From Candidatus Latescibacterota bacterium (GTDB lineage: Bacteria > Latescibacterota > UBA2968 > GCA-2709665), in NCBI GenBank assembly GCA_965226795.1, contig CBDDDZ010000004.1, forward strand, positions 96,001 through 160,000: a stretch of 64,000 nt of DNA, given 5' to 3'. Position numbers and translations under genes: made by a program. The notes under the pieces were generated by a model that was not told where the DNA came from, ran no database searches, and saw only the letters and a list, made by a program, of their open reading frames with translations. This document shows, piece after piece, positions 27,038 to 44,565 of this stretch. The stretch's first letter is position 1, and every line of letters starts with the position of its first letter.

Positions 27038-29053
27038 TCAGTCGCCGACGGAACGCCTCGCCGTTTTCGGTCCGTTGCCTGCCTGCGCCGAGCCGTGCTC
27101 GGCAGGCAGGTCGTCGATGTTGATCCACTTCAGGTACATGGGATTGGCCCACCAGTAGGCGCAGAATTTCAGCCCCTTCACGTAGGGCCTGACCAGAGCC
27201 GTGGCATTGGCGACGTGGAGCGGGAAATCCCAGCTGAATGCCTGCACCAGGCGGTGCACTTCGCGGTTGATCTCAGCCTGCCGGGACGGGTCCCGCGCGT
27301 GGTGCGCTTCCTGGCGCATCTCCTCCAGACGCCACCGGAGATCGCTGGCGTGCGACCACTGAAAATGGTATTGCCTGGCCTGGAGGAGCGTGACATTGAG
27401 AGCCTTCCAACACCAATCCGCATCCGCATCCGGTTCGTGGGCCGTCCGCAGGATCTCGTCCGCCGACCGCTGCCAACCGCTCATCGCCTCCGCTGCCTGC
27501 CGCCGCAGGTGCGGGCCGTGTCTTCCGTTTGCGAAAAGCGCCATCACCGAGTCTGCATACGCCGCGACCCGCCCGTGCATAGGCTGGAAGTCCTCGACAT
27601 TCTTTGCCCGATTGAGCTGAGTCATACCCGATCGGATCTGCACGATTCGGCGTTGCCCCGCCCACCAGGCGCCGTAGACTTCGGGATTGTCCGTCCACTG
27701 GACGTTTTCGATCCATTGCGTGCCGTAGATGGGGTTGGGCCACGGCGCCCCGGACGCCGCAAAGCACATCCCCGCATACCCGGTTGGGTTCAGGGAAACC
27801 CGCTTGTCGGCGTACACCCCCAGTTCCTGATTGTCGATCTTGAACCGAATGCCCAGGTTCTCTTCCAGCATGGCGGCAATCGCCACGAACTGCGAAACCA
27901 TCTCGGGCGCCAGGTACGACGGGATCAGAATCACCGATTCGGGAATGCCCTTGCCACCCGGATACCCCGCCTCAGACAGCAGCCGCCGGGCTTCGTCCAG
28001 GTCGAATCCCATCCCCAGTTCCGGATCCCAATCCGGCATAGCAGGCGTGGACAGCATATTCATCGGCGTCTCCCGCCCGAGAAAAATCGCCTCCACAATC
28101 CGGCGCTTGTCGAATCCGAGGGCGATCGCCCGCCGCACGCGGGCGTCCCAGTAAACCGGATTTTCGGAAAACAGGAATCTAACGTAGGAAAGCCCGCTCG
28201 TAGGCGTCCAGACCAGTTCACCGCTCAGCGCCGGATGGTGTTTGGCATAGTAGATATCGGCGATCGATTGCAGGAGTGCGAAGTCGATCTCGCCGCTCTG
28301 ATACCCCTCGAGGGGTCTGCCCGCGAATCGGCTGTAGATCCGCTCGAGATTGCCTCGCCGCAAGTTGTATTGCGGATTCGGTTCGAGGATGACATGGGAA
28401 TTGAGTTCCCACTCCACGATCCTGTACGGCCCGTTGCCCTGGTAGTTGGGCAGCTTGTGCCACGCGTCTCCATCTTTTTTAAGGGAGCCACGGTGGATCG
28501 GAAACATGCTTCCGGTGACCATTGCGTTCAAGAACGCGGGGTACGGCCTCGCCAGGCGGAACCGCAGGGTGTAGTCGTCCAGCACATCCACACCCACCTC
28601 CTCCTCTCGAGCGGCGCCGTTCCTGAAGTCCAGGGCCTTGATCACGTACTGCAACGGAGTGTCCCAGATCCACTTGCTCTCGCGACCCGGTTCCATCTGA
28701 TAGATGAACGCGGCCCTGTAGTCCCGTGCGGTCACTGTCGTGCCGTCGTACCAGCGGTTGTCCCGCCGCAGAACGAACGTATAGGACAGCCTGTCTTCGG
28801 ATACCTCCCAGCGCACGGCCTGGGCCGGAATCAGCCCTCCCTCCGGGCCCAGTTGAACCAGGCCCTCTTTCGTGCCCAGCGTGATCTGCGCGTACATCCC
28901 CCCCGTATACAGATAGCTGTTCAACGTGCTCAACGGCGGCCCGATGTACCGGATCTCCCTCGGGCGGTTGGCCAGCGCCGACGGACCGGAAAGCGCCCCG
29001 AAAAGCATCCCGCACAGTACAGCAGCGCGCCAGACCATGCTCCCAGGATTCAT
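27038..29053 (-). CDS. oppA: Peptide ABC transporter substrate-binding protein (SBP family 5)
   Basis: WEVSEDRLSYTFVLR..WYDGTTVTARD, GNGPYRIVEW, DARVRRAIA; ATG 29053 overlaps the upstream stop (ATGA). Confidence 0.85.
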   Translation of the reverse strand: MNPGSMVWRAAVLCGMLFGALSGPSALANRPREIRYIGPPLSTLNSYLYTGGMYAQITLGTKEGLVQLGPEGGLIPAQAVRWEVSEDRLSYTFVLRRDNRWYDGTTVTARDYRAAFIYQMEPGRESKWIWDTPLQYVIKALDFRNGAAREEEVGVDVLDDYTLRFRLARPYPAFLNAMVTGSMFPIHRGSLKKDGDAWHKLPNYQGNGPYRIVEWELNSHVILEPNPQYNLRRGNLERIYSRFAGRPLEGYQSGEIDFALLQSIADIYYAKHHPALSGELVWTPTSGLSYVRFLFSENPVYWDARVRRAIALGFDKRRIVEAIFLGRETPMNMLSTPAMPDWDPELGMGFDLDEARRLLSEAGYPGGKGIPESVILIPSYLAPEMVSQFVAIAAMLEENLGIRFKIDNQELGVYADKRVSLNPTGYAGMCFAASGAPWPNPIYGTQWIENVQWTDNPEVYGAWWAGQRRIVQIRSGMTQLNRAKNVEDFQPMHGRVAAYADSVMALFANGRHGPHLRRQAAEAMSGWQRSADEILRTAHEPDADADWCWKALNVTLLQARQYHFQWSHASDLRWRLEEMRQEAHHARDPSRQAEINREVHRLVQAFSWDFPLHVANATALVRPYVKGLKFCAYWWANPMYLKWINIDDLPAEHGSAQAGNGPKTARRSVGD
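27078..27110. repeat. 33-bp CCTGCCTG...CAGGCAGG mini-palindrome inside the oppA 3' end
   Basis: Reverse complement is identical to 31059-31091; encodes LPAEHGSAQAG in frame. Confidence 0.9.
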
Positions 29054-31011: not shown

Positions 31012-31712
31012 GCCCTTTTTCTTGCATCGCCCAAGAAAAAGGGCGAAAAAGAAGGGCGCCTGCCTGCCGAGCACGGCTCGGCGCAGGCAGGCCGCTCGGC
31101 GCGGAGCCGGTTTTTCCACGAATTTTCTCAGTGGCATAGACTTGCAATTGTGCCCTGCGTACGAATCCCGCCCCACGGTACTTCAATGCGGGACGGAATA
31201 GCGTGGAAAAACCCCCCACGCCACAACCGTGCGCTTGAAAGGATCTCACAAGATTCGTTCCGATAGTGATGTCACAATTTAGAGCGCGGAATCCACGTCC
31301 GCCCGCATGGTGGGCGACCTGTTGTCCCGGCGGCTTATCCGGACAACAGGGGACGCCTGGTTCTGGCGTTCGAGGCTGATGGTGAGCGGAATGATTTTCG
31401 CCGCGAACAAAGGCCCCTTCCACCCGTAGGGGACGCTCGAGAGGCGAAGCGTTCTGAAAGGCGTTAGAAAAACATCCATACGACTCGTCGCCAGAAAGCC
31501 AATTGGGCTTGTTGGCGAGTCCTATCCGGAGGACTCCCAGAGCAGAGCGCGCTATTCCGTTGCGCAACGAATTGCGGTATCCACCTTCGCTTGCAGGGCA
31601 GCACATCATGTGCGTCCCGTGAGGTTATTCGCGCTGTGCATATGGCAGGCCCCGCGCCCAGCGGCGACTTTTGGTTCCTTTTGGTCGCTTCAAAAGGAAC
31701 CCGCCGGAGGCA
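31012..31712. ncRNA. Putative long structured non-coding element (unclassified)
   Basis: Intergenic; terminal 13-bp and 11-bp hairpins plus several internal stems; homologous segments at 38947-39130 and 40378-40455. Confidence 0.5.
31059..31091. repeat. 33-bp CCTGCCTG...CAGGCAGG mini-palindrome inserted in the long element
   Basis: Absent from the homologous position (GCG^CCGCTCGG, ~38992) of the second copy. Confidence 0.9.
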
Positions 31713-31872
31713 GGGAAATTGGGGAGTAGTGGTAAGAACAATAAAAAATCGATATCGCCAGTCCGTATCGCTAACCGCCTTTTGCTGATCGTTGCCTGTC
31801 CCTTTGTGTCTTCGTGTCTCCGTGTGAGCCGAATCTCGGCAATCCGGTTCCGGTACAGAACTCCACGTTTAC

Positions 31873-38946: not shown

Positions 38947-39130
38947 GTCCTTTTTCTTATTCGCGTAAGGAAAAGGACCAAAAAGAACCGCGCCGCTCGG
39001 CGCGGAGCCGGTTTTTCCACGAATCTCACCGGTGGCATAGACGAGCGATTGTGGCCTGCGTACTCAAGAGATCAAAAAATCATTCTGTGGTGAACGGAAA
39101 AGCGTGGAAAAACCCCCCAAGCCACCACCG
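38947..39130. repeat. Partial second copy (5' part) of the 31012-31712 element
   Basis: Shared hairpin, CCGCTCGGCGCGGAGCCGGTTTTTCCACGAAT...GTGGCATAGAC...GCGTGGAAAAACCCCCCA. Confidence 0.85.
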
Positions 39131-39273: not shown

Positions 39274-39501
39274 TCAGGCTGCCAGGTAGTCATCCTGCCT
39301 GGAGGAGACATCCGGCTCGGGATCTTTACTTGCCCCGACGAACTGCATGAGTCCACGCCTCTCCGGTACCTTTCGGGGATGGATGCTCATTTGGTGCGCA
39401 GGCTTCTCAGCCTTTTCCGCGCACCAGCGTTGAAGCCCTTCAATTACGGTTTCCCTCGACGGCCAGCGCTTGACGGACGAAATGGACGATGTCACCGGCA
39501 A
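39274..39501 (-). pseudogene. Truncated minimal nucleotidyltransferase (MNT) partner of HEPN, fused to unrelated sequence
   Basis: LPVTSSISSVKRWPSRETVIEGLQRW resembles the N-terminus of MNTs overlapping HEPN genes, but no GS/DxD catalytic motif follows. Confidence 0.5.
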
Positions 39502-39841
39502 AACGTAGTCCCTGTTCGCTCTGCAGCGGCCCGTAATGTTCGTAGGCCGCGCCTTCCGGATGCCCGTTAGGACAGCGTGTCGGAACGTAGTAGTTGTCGA
39601 GCACTCGCCCTTTTTCGACCAGGTGCTCCGAAGGGGCATCCGGAAGCTCCAAGAGCAGGCGCGCAACAACGTGGCCCCTCAATCGCTTTCCCCTGGCGAC
39701 GTGGAGCGCCTTCACTGCCTTTTCAGAAGCCTGGTGCGCGGCGAAACAAGCCCAGCCATGACGGCCTCCAATCTCAGATGCGGCGGCCTGCTGCAAATCG
39801 TGCTCCGCTTGCGCCAGCCAATCTTTCCATCGCTGTGCCAT
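39440..39841 (-). CDS. HEPN domain protein
   Basis: WLAQAEHDL, WACFAAHQASEKAVKA, GHVVARLL, YYVPTRCPNGH. Confidence 0.85.
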   Translation of the reverse strand: MAQRWKDWLAQAEHDLQQAAASEIGGRHGWACFAAHQASEKAVKALHVARGKRLRGHVVARLLLELPDAPSEHLVEKGRVLDNYYVPTRCPNGHPEGAAYEHYGPLQSEQGLRFAGDIVHFVRQALAVEGNRN

Positions 39842-40377
39842 CTTGTTACTCCTACCCTGTCCAAATCCCGACGTCGTTTCCTCGAAATCCTCAGTTCATT
39901 TCGTACTGAATTCCGCCACTGCGATCAACTCATGTCGAGCAAGAATTAAAATATCCCTAATCGACGACTTAAGCAAGAGGAAATGGCGTCGTGGCCGCCG
40001 TCTGTTAATAAGGGAAGGCGGCGCTCCCATGTTCGCTGGCGCGGGACCCCGTACGGGGAAAGATAAAGCATTGACAACGGGTCAAGGCGTCACAAGGAAC
40101 AGTCCGGCACAAGCAATTACTATTGACGTGGTAGTAAGTGAATTCCTCACAGAACCAGGCATCCGCGTATTGATATCGCCAGGCCGTATCGTCGACCAGG
40201 TTTGGCTGACTGCTGACCACTGATTGCTCTATCTCAGTGGGCCGGGGGGAGAGGTCCCGGGATCGAGGGCATCTTGCCCTCGTTGCGCCACTTCCGGTCC
40301 TGCCGCGTCATGGCGCTGACGTCAACTGATTGGGTTTTTGATTCAAGCTGAGAGCTGACAGCTTCTTTTGCTGCTTC

Positions 40378-40455
40378 TCCGGACAACAGAGGACGCGTGG
40401 TTTTGGCGTCCGACGTTGATGGTGAGCGGCGCGTCTCACGCCGCGAACAAAAGGC
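40378..40455. repeat. Internal fragment homologous to 31338-31414 of the long element
   Basis: TCCGGACAACAG.GGACGC.TGGTT.TGGCGT.CGA.G.TGATGGTGAGCGG...CGCCGCGAACAAA. Confidence 0.8.
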
Positions 40456-40616
40456 ACGCGACAAGATCGACGCGATGTTGAATCTTGCCGGCTGGAAGGT
40501 ACAGTCAAAAAACAAGCTTGTCGATAGCAAGGGCGGGTTGGGGCAGATGTGCAAGTTATTTGGTGACCGGTATGGATTACGTAATTGACGAATTGAATGA
40601 GGCGTTGGCGGCGTAA
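40444..40616 (+). pseudogene. hsdR: Internally deleted hsdR relic (5' end joined to 3' end)
   Basis: EQKARDKIDAMLNLAGWKVQSKNK matches hsdR ~41824-41897; the following DNA matches hsdR 44471-44565 including GAATTGAATGAGGC.TTGGC.GCGTAA. Confidence 0.85.
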
Positions 40617-40727
40617 GTCTGCCTCTCTGCTCAGGTTCTTTACATTCTGATAATTTTCTTTGTATTTTTCAGTAAGTAAAGTAATTCGTATGAAATTCTG
40701 ACGTGATCTACATCATTGGAGAAGATC

Positions 40728-40964
40728 GTGCCCAAAGTCAGTGCCAAGCGACAGATAACGCTTCCGGCTGATCAGTGCCGTTTGGCCGGCATCAAGCCAG
40801 GCGACGAGTGCCGGAGTTTCGTGGCCGATGGCCGCATCACCATAGTCCGCCAGCAGCCCGGCAGCGCCTGGGGATGCCTGGCGTATCTTGAAGGAGATCC
40901 AACGGTTTCAGACGAGGAGTCGCGGCAGGACGCCATGGAAAGAAAGCGAGACCAAACGCCTTGA
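40728..40964 (+). CDS. AbrB/MazE/SpoVT-family antitoxin
   Basis: PKVSAKRQITLP...GIKPGD; GTG after GGAG; overlaps the PIN gene. Confidence 0.85.
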   Translation: MPKVSAKRQITLPADQCRLAGIKPGDECRSFVADGRITIVRQQPGSAWGCLAYLEGDPTVSDEESRQDAMERKRDQTP

Positions 40965-41362
40965 TCGCAATCGACACCAATGTCCTGCTGCGCTATCTCT
41001 TGAGAGACGACGAAGCGCAGGCTGAACGGGCGCGTTGCATTATTGAATGCGGTGAGCGCGTTCTCATTACGGATGTGGTACTGGCGGAAACGACGTGGAC
41101 TTTAGCTGGCCGCCGGTATCGCGCGACCCGGGCCGACCTGATCGATTTGGTCAATATCCTGCTACAAGATTCCAACGTGCACTTCGAGGATGATGAGGTG
41201 GTCTGGAGCGCCTTGCAGGCATTTCGCAGGACGGAGGCGGACTTCGGCGACGCCCTGATCGTATGCAAGGCCAGAAAGACGGCAGCCGACGGAGACGAGT
41301 CGAGCGCTTTTTACACCTTCGATAACGCCGCCTTGCAGTTGCCTGACACCGCAGAGCCGTAG
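40961..41362 (+). CDS. vapC: PIN-domain toxin (VapC family)
   Basis: IDTNVLLR, VLAET, ADFGDALI, YTFD acidic residues. Confidence 0.9.
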   Translation: MIAIDTNVLLRYLLRDDEAQAERARCIIECGERVLITDVVLAETTWTLAGRRYRATRADLIDLVNILLQDSNVHFEDDEVVWSALQAFRRTEADFGDALIVCKARKTAADGDESSAFYTFDNAALQLPDTAEP

Positions 41363-41799: not shown

Positions 41800-44565
41800 G
41801 TGACTGACATTTACCGCACTCCGGAACAGAAGGCGCGCGACAAGATCGACGTGATGTTGAATCAGGCCGGCTGGCAGGTTCAGTCAAGAAACAAGATTGA
41901 CTTGAATGCGTGCGCCGGCATCGCTGTTCGCGAGTATCAGACGGATGTTGGCCCAGCCGACTACGTTCTCTTTGTTGACAAGAAAGCCGTCGGTGTTGTC
42001 GAGGCCAAGCCGGAGGAATGGGGCCATAACATCACGACCGTGGAATTACAGTCCGGCACTTATGCTGCTGCCGAACTCAAATGGGTAAACAATCAAGAAC
42101 CTCTGCCGTTCGTTTACGAATCCACCGGTGTGCTTACTCGGTTTACCGACGGACGCGACCCGAAACCGCGCTCCCGGGAGGTTTTCAACTTCCCACGACC
42201 GGAAACCATGCCGGAGTGGCACACAAATGACGACTCGCTTCGTGCCAAGCTTCGAAAACTTCCTGAGCTCAACCCTACCGGACTCAGGTCTTGCCAGATA
42301 AGCGCCATCGAGAATCTCGAGATCTCGTTTAGAGACAACCGTCCGCGCGCACTCATTCAGATGGCCACCGGCTCTGGAAAGACCTACACCGCCATCACGT
42401 CGATTTACCGGCTGCTCAAACACGCGGACGCCAGGCGGATTCTCTTTCTCGTAGACACCAGGCATCTGGGTGAACAGGCCGAACAGGAATTCATGGCGTA
42501 CGTACCCAATGACGACAACCGCAAATTCACCGAACTCTACAGCGTTCAGCGTCTCAAATCGTCCTATGTTGCCAAGGATAGTCAGGTCTGTATCAGCACC
42601 ATCCAGCGCATGTATTCGCTTCTGAAGGGCGAGGAGATGGACGAATCCGCGGAAGAGATAAATCCGGCGGAGTTGACGCAGCCCAGACAGCCGATTCCGG
42701 TCGTCTACAACCAGAAAATTCCGCCTGAGTTCTTTGACTTCATCATCATTGACGAATGCCACCGGTCGATCTACAACCTCTGGCGCCAGGTCCTCGAATA
42801 CTTCGACGCATTCCTCATTGGCCTGACCGCTACGCCGGACAACCGTACGTACGGATTCTTCAAGAAAAACGTCGTCAGCGAATACACCCACGAACAAGCC
42901 GTCGCGGACGGTGTCAACGTCGGCAACGAAGTCTATATAATCGATACGGAAAGGACAGAGCACGGTGGCCATATAAGAGCCCACCAGCACGTCGAAAAAC
43001 GGGAGCGTCTCACGCGGCGCAAGCGCTGGGAGATTCAGGACGAGGATCTCGTTTATACCAGACAAGAACTGGATCGTGCCGTCGTCAATCCCGACCAGAT
43101 CCGTACCGTCATCCAGACCTTCCACGATAAACGGCATGAGATATTTCCGGGCCGAAGCGAAGTTCCGAAGACGTTGATTTTTGCCAAAACCGATAGCCAT
43201 GCCGACGACATCATACAGACCGTGCGTGAAGAATTCGCCGAAGGCAACGAGTTCTGCAAAAAGATCACCTACCGAGCAACAGAAGACCCGAAATCTGTCC
43301 TTGCCCAGTTTCGAAACGACTACTACCCGCGCATAGCTGTCACCGTGGATATGATTGCCACGGGTACCGACGTCAAACCACTCGAATGCCTGATCTTCAT
43401 GCGTGACGTGAGGAGCCGAAACTATTTCGAGCAGATGAAGGGTCGCGGGACCCGTACCTTTGAACACGACGATCTTAGGAAAGTCTCGCCGTCCGCTGTA
43501 AGTGGCAAGACCCACTATGTGATTGTCGACGCCGTCGGCGTCACAAAATCACTAAAGACTGCCAGCCAGCCGCTCATCACCAAACCTTCGGTGTCACTCA
43601 AGGATCTTGCAATGTGCGTGATGATGGGCGCCCACGATGAGGACACGGTGAGTTCCCTTGCCGGACGGCTCGCCCGACTCAACCGACAGCTCGACCAAGA
43701 TGAGCAGGATCGTATCCGAGAAAAGGCTGGCGGCGTCGAACTCACCAACATCGTCGGCGATCTGCTGGCGGCTATCGACCCGGACCGGATTGATGCGAAG
43801 GCTCGCGAAATTGAAGCTGTGCCCGACGGCGACGACCCGTCACCACCCGCTCGCGTCCAGGCGCGGGGACAGTTTGTAGCCGAGGCGGCCAGCGTGTTCA
43901 ACGGCGAGTTGATCGAATTGATCGATTCCATCCGCCGCGACAAAGAACAGACCATCGATCATGAGAGCCTGGACACCGTGCGGCGAGCTGAATGGAAAGG
44001 CGACGCGCACGAGAACGCCGAGGCCCTTGTCAAAGACTTCCGGGACTATCTTGAAGCCAATCGCGATGAAATCGAAGCCCTAACCATCTTTTACGCTCAA
44101 CCGTACAGGCGAAGAGACCTGACATTCGAGATGATCCGCGAGGTTTTCGAAAAGCTTAAAATCGATCGGCCTCGACTAGCCCCTTTGCGTGTATGGCAGG
44201 CATACTCCGTATTGGATGAATACAACGGCAGGCAACCGGCCAGTGAACTGACCGCGCTTGTGGCTTTGATCCGCCGCGTCTGCGGGATTGACGAGAAAAT
44301 CTCAACTTATTCGGATACCGTTCGCCGCAACTTCCAAAATTGGATTATGACACACCACAGCGGCAGCGGCGAAAAGTTCAACGAAGAGCAAATGCACTGG
44401 TTGCGCATGATCCGCGACCACATCATCACCTCCTTTCATCTGGAGCACGACGATCTGGACATGGCTCCATTCGATGGCAAGGGCGGCATGGGGCAGATGT
44501 ACAAGCTCTTCGGAGACCGAATGGATGATGTGATTGAGGAATTGAATGAGGCATTGGCAGCGTAA
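41800..44565 (+). CDS. hsdR: Type I restriction endonuclease subunit R (EcoEI/EcoAI-like C-terminus)
   Basis: ADYVLF..VVEAK nuclease motif, MATGSGKT, DECHR, QMKGRGTR; probable GTG start at 41800. Confidence 0.92.
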   Translation: MTDIYRTPEQKARDKIDVMLNQAGWQVQSRNKIDLNACAGIAVREYQTDVGPADYVLFVDKKAVGVVEAKPEEWGHNITTVELQSGTYAAAELKWVNNQEPLPFVYESTGVLTRFTDGRDPKPRSREVFNFPRPETMPEWHTNDDSLRAKLRKLPELNPTGLRSCQISAIENLEISFRDNRPRALIQMATGSGKTYTAITSIYRLLKHADARRILFLVDTRHLGEQAEQEFMAYVPNDDNRKFTELYSVQRLKSSYVAKDSQVCISTIQRMYSLLKGEEMDESAEEINPAELTQPRQPIPVVYNQKIPPEFFDFIIIDECHRSIYNLWRQVLEYFDAFLIGLTATPDNRTYGFFKKNVVSEYTHEQAVADGVNVGNEVYIIDTERTEHGGHIRAHQHVEKRERLTRRKRWEIQDEDLVYTRQELDRAVVNPDQIRTVIQTFHDKRHEIFPGRSEVPKTLIFAKTDSHADDIIQTVREEFAEGNEFCKKITYRATEDPKSVLAQFRNDYYPRIAVTVDMIATGTDVKPLECLIFMRDVRSRNYFEQMKGRGTRTFEHDDLRKVSPSAVSGKTHYVIVDAVGVTKSLKTASQPLITKPSVSLKDLAMCVMMGAHDEDTVSSLAGRLARLNRQLDQDEQDRIREKAGGVELTNIVGDLLAAIDPDRIDAKAREIEAVPDGDDPSPPARVQARGQFVAEAASVFNGELIELIDSIRRDKEQTIDHESLDTVRRAEWKGDAHENAEALVKDFRDYLEANRDEIEALTIFYAQPYRRRDLTFEMIREVFEKLKIDRPRLAPLRVWQAYSVLDEYNGRQPASELTALVALIRRVCGIDEKISTYSDTVRRNFQNWIMTHHSGSGEKFNEEQMHWLRMIRDHIITSFHLEHDDLDMAPFDGKGGMGQMYKLFGDRMDDVIEELNEALAA

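Follow-up and report, generated by a model that had tools for sequence, protein, structure and literature searches.

The locus and its parts

Between genes for an FG-GAP/ASPIC protein and a Gfo/Idh/MocA oxidoreductase, the 64,000-nucleotide window (the whole stretch of Candidatus Latescibacterota DNA that was analysed) holds two related ~200-nt units, A and B, of a dispersed non-coding repeat, arranged as a divergent doublet (Table 1). A preliminary description of this DNA had treated the region as one ~700-nt element; it is in fact composed of two homologous units on opposite strands and an optional middle module, M. Read on their opposite strands, the left (A) and right (B) units agree in layout and have three invariant core motifs in common. 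The four stems named in that description are exact reverse complements, and the two hairpins thought to bound the element are real as stems, each being only one stem of a predicted pseudoknot. On either strand, the region (731 nt) has a better fold than every one of 20 shuffles (z -6.2 and -5.7). A Pfam scan of the two open reading frames overlapping the element gives no match. The earlier statement that no known family could be assigned holds for Rfam: nothing is found in the window at the gathering score, relaxation of E up to 10 yields chance-level matches alone, and nothing is found in 40 further knot-bearing loci. A search of a plasmid collection likewise returned short chance matches alone.

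Table 1. Features of the repeat in the window (positions from the first letter of the window)
Feature	Position	Strand	Description
Unit A terminal pseudoknot	31012..31058	-	13-bp stem 31012-31024/31032-31044
Unit A knot helix	31028-31031 with 31055-31058	-	loop bases pair
Unit A third strand	31045-31053	-	pyrimidine, mirrors stem purine strand; predicted U.A-U and C.G-C triples
Optional 33-nt GC-rich palindrome	31060..31092		inserted in small hairpin of unit A
Unit A core	31109..31213	-	closing stem 31109-31120/31202-31213; 81-nt unpaired fixed-length loop
Unit A core invariant motifs	31120-31123, 31151-31156, 31193-31197	-	
Middle module M	31285..31417		three to four small hairpins; optional; about 20-28 copies
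Unit B second domain	31465..31541	+	more variable; replaced in sister species allele
Unit B core	31542..31639	+	stem 31542-31551/31630-31639; 78-nt variable loop; unit A's three invariant motifs
Unit B terminal pseudoknot and small hairpin 3' of knot	31664..31714	+	module common to Pseudomonas TwoAYGGAY loci and other phyla
Unit B knot	31664-31668 with 31684-31688	+	stem 31673-31683/31691-31701; U4 third strand 31669-31672
Second, single A unit	38947..39130	-	other subtype; without 33-nt insert
Module M remnant	40370..40451		joined directly to fragment like start of type I restriction R gene

The second A unit of the window had been taken for a partial copy and is a whole unit. As was noted before, it keeps the first hairpin with two compensatory changes (C-G to T-A, G-C to A-T) and one G.U, and it keeps the long stem around an enclosed sequence that differs. 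The third segment also proved to be as described, the M remnant matching 31330-31411 at 82%. A genome-wide BLAST check, which recovered 199 pieces in 118 clusters (some of them just a short palindrome), establishes that further copies exist, and the window's three copies are thus three of about a hundred. Position at the border of a defence island, to which the preliminary description had tied the element, is incidental, the copies adjoining ordinary genes genome-wide.

Several features of the surrounding DNA are recorded here in their own right. The fragment fused to the M remnant (40445-40520) shares 88% identity with the start of the type I restriction R gene (41824-41899), and the intact gene follows 1.4 kb downstream. 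The interval that separates the second A unit from the restriction operon contains a HEPN gene with a short downstream open reading frame (39274-39841) and a small gene with a PIN-domain gene (40716-41362), both pairs being toxin-antitoxin-like. The 33-nt palindrome is carried by 46 of 78 A copies, and both RNA and DNA contigs pass over it. It occurs also in frame at 27077-27110, at the 3' end of an ABC substrate-binding gene to which it adds about 11 codons, and it has 48 copies genome-wide.

Core loop and terminal pseudoknot

The core combines a fixed length with a free sequence. In 61 A cores, closing stem and loop together measure 101 nt (39 cores), 102 nt (21) or 103 nt (1); among 59 distinct cores, identity between copies is 48% in one half of the loop and 44% in the other, as compared to 81-87% in the scaffold. 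The loop is unpaired in the consensus fold (83 interior columns) and folds no better than its shuffles (mean z 0.01). No consistent period of conservation was found in the loops, and as regards coding potential, stop codons occur in every frame of the cores (39-79 of 104 cores).

The scaffold was aligned for 51 A units lacking the insert, taken from genomes G003, G008, G011 and G015, from metagenome loci and from the window's second copy. Its 10-bp closing stem, 4-bp knot and 13-bp terminal stem make up a 27-pair structure in which 99.9% of 1376 cells are paired, compared to 50-62% in slid controls, and 93 cells are changed on both sides, although these cells do not represent independent events because the 51 sequences are related. 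Two-sided changes fall on three pairs of the closing stem, two of the terminal stem and one of the knot helix, where 43 C-G stand against 7 G-C. The selection on single-strand structure postulated at the outset is thereby supported.

Read with the hairpin last, the knot is laid out as knot strand, U-rich strand, stem, loop and A-rich strand. U-rich and purine strands match in parallel orientation, and loop and knot strand co-vary among A subtypes. The B-end pattern is present at no fewer than 120 loci of the genome collection, in Pseudomonas, Bacteroidota, Bacillota, Burkholderiaceae, Xanthomonadales and others. Among the 129 matches listed, the loop pairs with bases 5' of the U strand over 4.6 bp on average (at least 4 bp in 64%), compared to 2.8 bp (23%) in a cross-locus control. 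For a test of mirror symmetry, loci were searched by the stem alone and the upstream strand was then read. With a 4T-C-3T stem, 10 matches in 16 viral loci have the C placed in mirror order and none fits a direct repeat only; with a 5T-C-2T stem, the corresponding figures are 55 matches in 120 metagenome loci and 2, with the reservation that 2 mirror matches of the former and about 18 of the latter (by visual count) fall within T runs compatible with mirror and direct order alike. The third-strand C thus follows the stem in mirror order as the stem changes. From this predicted pseudoknot and its mirror pyrimidine strand, a triple helix is predicted in turn. Because mirror order allows a purine-motif triplex on the opposite DNA strand too, the working strand and molecule could be either; indeed, one strand of the sequence conforms to class II of the intrastrand triplexes and its complement to class IV. 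The feature by which intrastrand triplex motifs are recognised, a hairpin with a mirror third strand, is found in the sequence and in its mirror covariation.

The layout resembles the triple-helix pseudoknots of telomerase RNA and ENE elements. Common to all is a U-rich strand, which is predicted here to occupy the major groove of a U-A-rich stem and to be interrupted by C.G-C; the Latescibacterota knot differs in being a bacterial repeat, and its triples are those of a prediction. The same knot was observed at the end of repeats in Ralstonia, Cupriavidus and Oscillospiraceae (loci L173, L110, L167, L168), which appear to have conserved short motifs with variable stretches between them. This suggests variable-loop cores outside Latescibacterota.

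Distribution, and the gain, loss and replacement of alleles

BLAST against the window's own genome (G000) resolves the region into three blocks, with 78 matches covering the first hairpin for the left, about 20 for the middle and 41 covering the right end for the right. Strict patterns recover 70 A ends and 32 B ends; none of the 102 lies inside a long open reading frame call, all being intergenic. An A end is found within 1 kb of 25 of the 32 B ends, and all 25 pairs are divergent, with the terminal hairpins facing outward and an interior varying from 57 to 848 nt. For 46 of the 70 A ends there is no B within 1 kb, so that singles outnumber doublets. Ends show no preferred orientation, whether judged by the next gene (A 40/30, B 20/12) or by local GC skew (A 38/32, B 21/11). 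The 1.7 Mb around the inferred terminus hold 5 of the 102 ends, where 32 are expected; in that part of G000 (C5, 0.7-2.4 Mb), where units are sparse, GC skew is clean, and in the unit-rich half it is patchy. At one locus (G000 C3:633094-634509), an A unit precedes three B units that stand in tandem at intervals of about 375 nt.

The element is present in 14 of 14 genus genomes and in 19 of 21 family genomes searched. B-end copies number 0-32 across 15 genus genomes, and there are none in 26 others. Core spacing is retained in a second genus and in one genome of another family, and there, outside the genus, the unit is compact (~190 nt). In G010 (L336 1973-3418, L337), core copies that lack the terminal knot are found in a tandem duplication of 730 nt and, as a third copy, elsewhere. 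GCTGAY-type hexamers accumulate near B, at 1.7 per 300 nt on the 5' side and 2.1 on the 3' side as against 0.31 at random, and they show no enrichment on A's own strand. Group II introns of G008 are inserted beside GCTGA-type short repeats that flank the units (L024, L037, L053, L063).

Comparison of G000 with a sister species (G008) and a third species (G013) reveals how alleles change. At the present locus, G008 retains the B loop unchanged and lacks unit A, the join lying at a shared 5-nt motif, and it carries other modules in B's second domain and in the right flank; contigs contain the G008-type allele as well as an empty allele. The loop of the window's second A unit is replaced in G008 and similar in G013 (7 differences). 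The G008 set comprises 70 cores in 53 regions around 52 A and 31 B motif matches. Flanks of 61 cores map to G000, and for 31 of these the G000 site has no core of the same type. In the remaining 30 orthologous cores, differences over about 63 positions amount to 0-1 (11 cores), 4 (3), 10 (2), 16 (1) or 28-43 (13): loops at orthologous sites are near-identical in 11 of 30 and wholly replaced in 13. Among other non-coding windows, 16 of 173 have at most one difference, and among blocks of fourfold sites 11 of 364, giving p 4e-5 for the near-identical loops. Pairs among the three species show stronger conservation in retained loops than at synonymous sites. Close to the units, fourfold divergence is not lowered (0.15-0.18 within 1 kb, 0.15-0.20 beyond), and no co-conversion of flanking genes was seen.

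Of the 20 G013 cores, two are the same as a G000 or G008 allele at the orthologous site, with flanks of 88-90% identity; four differ at 1-5 positions from alleles found elsewhere or at sites that could not be mapped. Given near-identical loops at orthologous and non-orthologous sites, alleles are understood as being copied between sites; those retained owe their likeness either to recent exchange between species or to selection. Half-loops are exchanged independently of each other. Sites of presence and absence display a patchwork replacement between shared peripheral modules, with fuzzy borders, and at 11 such sites among those listed there is no target duplication, no shared terminal inverted repeat and no fixed end.

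Kindred systems and competing readings

The preliminary description had proposed a co-occurring enzyme gene as a check, and no mobilising enzyme was found: Y1 transposase was not found in 7 of 14 genus genomes, a reverse transcriptase (RT) occurs in 7 of 14 only, and both are missing from genomes with 12-18 B ends. RAYT-like genes exist in G000, together with 81 GTAG-type palindromes, and in 7 of 14 genus genomes, and were not found in G004, G009 and G012, which have 27, 18 and 12 B ends. The RTs inspected near units belong to group II introns, no neighbour protein recurs in 20 loci, and a crude motif scan for an adjacent DEDD recombinase gave 0 matches. Known systems built on variable RNA or repeats were considered and set aside: IS110 bridge RNA, as the longest match of loop to own flank is 9.3 nt as compared to 9.2 nt (87 cores); diversity-generating retroelements, as all six types of substitution occur with no adenine bias and Ts/Tv of 0.8-1.3; template RNA of a UG27/DRT-type RT, as no RT is consistently adjacent; CRISPR, TIGR or VIPR arrays, as copies are dispersed, have no fixed period and no recurring neighbour; and REPINs in the sense of two inverted copies of one REP, as A and B ends differ and most A ends are unpaired.

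The closest relative in kind is TwoAYGGAY of Pseudomonas, and the present repeat is likely the same kind of self-spreading element. TwoAYGGAY has been extended by a 3' pseudoknot, forms doublets that are 68.4% divergent, has short repeats 5' and REP arrays 3', and varies greatly in copy number; its expansion is described as mobile-element-like, with spread and function stated as open (10.64898/2026.09.22.753630). In the text of that source as covered here, the word 'triple' occurs three times, always for triplets. Scanning 20 of the loci with the B-end pattern identified two, both from Pseudomonas, where the Rfam TwoAYGGAY match stops 38-46 nt short of the B-end module, on its 5' side and on the same strand. 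Both have a 3' module of the same pattern (pseudoknot, then small hairpin), a basal stem that encloses a domain, doublets in divergent orientation, neighbours of REP type, a wide range of copy number and no known mobiliser, and perhaps also short repeats in the flanks. Distinct from TwoAYGGAY, the Latescibacterota units have no AYGGAY hairpins; their enclosed domain is an unpaired, hypervariable loop of fixed length; their doublets pair two types of unit; unit A brings a second type of knot with a longer mirror tract; and the flanking GCTGAY-type hexamer is unlike GMTBT. The model with two AYGGAY-loop hairpins, RF01731, matches Pseudomonas loci and gives no match in the window; genome-wide it gives no match either, in a search where the controls also matched nowhere. 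With the 3' module and doublet geometry in common and RF01731 unmatched, the repeat appears to work like TwoAYGGAY without being a member, and homology would be argued from the 3' module and layout. R200 (PMC2718517) is probably the same Pseudomonas element, judging by its 47 copies in SBW25 compared to 48 TwoAYGGAY matches. The open-access literature yielded no description of the repeat family or of a triplex in it, and the parts of PMC3116915 and 10.64898/2026.10.21.760802 covered here do not describe a Latescibacterota repeat.

Our study has importance in tying an uncatalogued Latescibacterota repeat to the extended TwoAYGGAY element through a common handle, the 3' pseudoknot with its mirror-covarying predicted triple helix, present in several phyla, which makes the question of spread and function testable in laboratory Pseudomonas. 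That alleles of the fixed-length loop are frozen in some cases and exchanged entire in others is unusual for a neutral spacer, and the loop is the likeliest place for new biology.

On the collective evidence, it seems to us somewhat better than an even chance that the repeat is a non-autonomous element, folded as a single strand, that is spread and rewritten by homology-directed copying triggered at the triplex knot, trigger and enzyme being the conjectural parts. The folded strand may be a transcript or exposed single-stranded DNA. A trans-acting enzyme would recognise the knot, or else the knot would stall replication; a break would then be repaired by copying from another copy, hence by recombinational copy-in as opposed to cut-and-paste. 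Crossovers at short invariant motifs could overwrite whole units, single half-loops or flanking modules, and the loop would serve as a length-locked spacer whose old alleles travel between sites and species. The reading as a non-autonomous mobile element, one of two offered in the preliminary description, fits this evidence. Conservation of the retained loops counts against a neutral spacer, unless exchange between species was recent, and it strains the copy-in explanation in that these loops are conserved beyond background, yet divergence does not dip in the flanking genes; the want of a mobilising enzyme also counts against it.

That same conservation, exceeding synonymous sites, speaks for an unlikely alternative, a dispersed library of functional RNAs in which the triplex protects the 3' end, as in ENE and telomerase knots, and the ~80-nt single-stranded loop serves a host protein as guide, template or decoy cassette. 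Fixed loop length with free sequence, invariant internal motifs and a spacing kept in another genus and family would suit such a library, and pyrimidine-motif triplexes do form in RNA according to PMC4666352. The RNA arrays of UG27 RT provide a precedent for conserved structure with diverse sequence, in pseudoknotted units of 150-170 nt that are gained and lost (10.64898/2026.09.22.753630, in the part covered); they differ in that the UG27 units, which are hairpins, sit in prophages as tandem arrays next to three genes, whereas the Latescibacterota units are dispersed, unpaired inside and without an adjacent RT. Against the library, loops match neither their own flanks nor pair with the other half-loop, the downstream domains or the partner unit; they keep a consensus and are related by point changes, unlike acquired spacers; partner gene and sigma-70-like promoter were not found at the units; and presence differs at about half of the sites between sister species. 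Loop 16-mers match the masked genome in 19 as compared to 12 of 87 cores, which may reflect unmasked remnants. As to the structured non-coding RNA first envisaged, the structure stands, and no discrete, abundant transcript was found. Part of the stretch is held by 14 RNA runs. In contigs of runs X1-X3, locus-specific loops have a depth of 2-9 and flanking genes mostly 2-20, and for shared segments the element-to-flank ratio is about 17-36 in RNA runs and about 54-123 in runs X15 and X19 (type unrecorded). Being unstranded and possibly contaminated with DNA, the contigs neither show nor exclude RNA by their coverage. A bolder version, which we consider quite doubtful, sees a genome-wide swappable library of triplex-capped guides or templates, with a constant scaffold, an ~80-nt cassette under selection and alleles shuffled at invariant junctions, read by a trans-acting enzyme; TwoAYGGAY and other knot-ended repeats would then be lineage-specific cargoes of one pan-bacterial triplex-capped class.

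Other categories agree less well. A and B as left and right ends of a deleted transposon, moved in trans by RAYT or another transposase in the manner of MITEs and REPINs, would explain why ends face outward in every pair around a variable interior, and the window's own genome has both RAYT-like genes and the palindromes; the resemblance to REPIN/RAYT (PMC3116915) includes non-autonomous intergenic doublets, many copies and mosaic clusters. This reading is nonetheless improbable: the empty sites that were inspected show no target duplication, no fixed ends and no terminal inverted repeats in common, many A ends have no B within 1 kb, Y1 transposase is patchy, and the one long A...B span inspected holds unrelated genes. 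Unlike REPINs, moreover, the units are pseudoknotted and ~200 nt long, A is no identical inverted repeat of B, and RAYT appears not to follow their distribution. Highly improbable is a role as terminator or leader of neighbouring genes, to which U-rich tracts following GC hairpins might point: the unbiased orientation to the next gene refutes a general role, and terminator-like sites number 2 as against 1.5 expected. Decayed coding sequence, equally improbable, has against it the stops in every frame and the overlapping open reading frames without a Pfam match.

Lastly, the repeat might act purely at the level of DNA, with an intrastrand triplex or H-DNA as hot spot of breakage and recombination and the rest as a hitch-hiking mosaic that has no dedicated enzyme. 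The fit to triplex classes II and IV, the fuzzy borders of replacement and the failure to find a dedicated enzyme agree with this, and intrastrand triplex motifs mark unstable loci in E. coli (PMC4666352). The motif studied there, TM-ECO, is likewise a mirror-repeat hairpin with third strand, multi-copy and intergenic at unstable loci; it is, however, ~36 nt long and G/C-rich, and the parts of that source covered here nowhere mention a pseudoknot, whereas the Latescibacterota units are A/T-rich and have a covarying knot helix within a 200-nt unit. A DNA hot spot leaves the covarying knot helix, the covarying distant stem and the locked loop length unexplained, and we judge it rather unlikely. 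A G-rich motif like the G/C-rich intrastrand triplex repeat does occur at position 40244 of the window and at 34 other sites, often in the same intergenic regions as the units.
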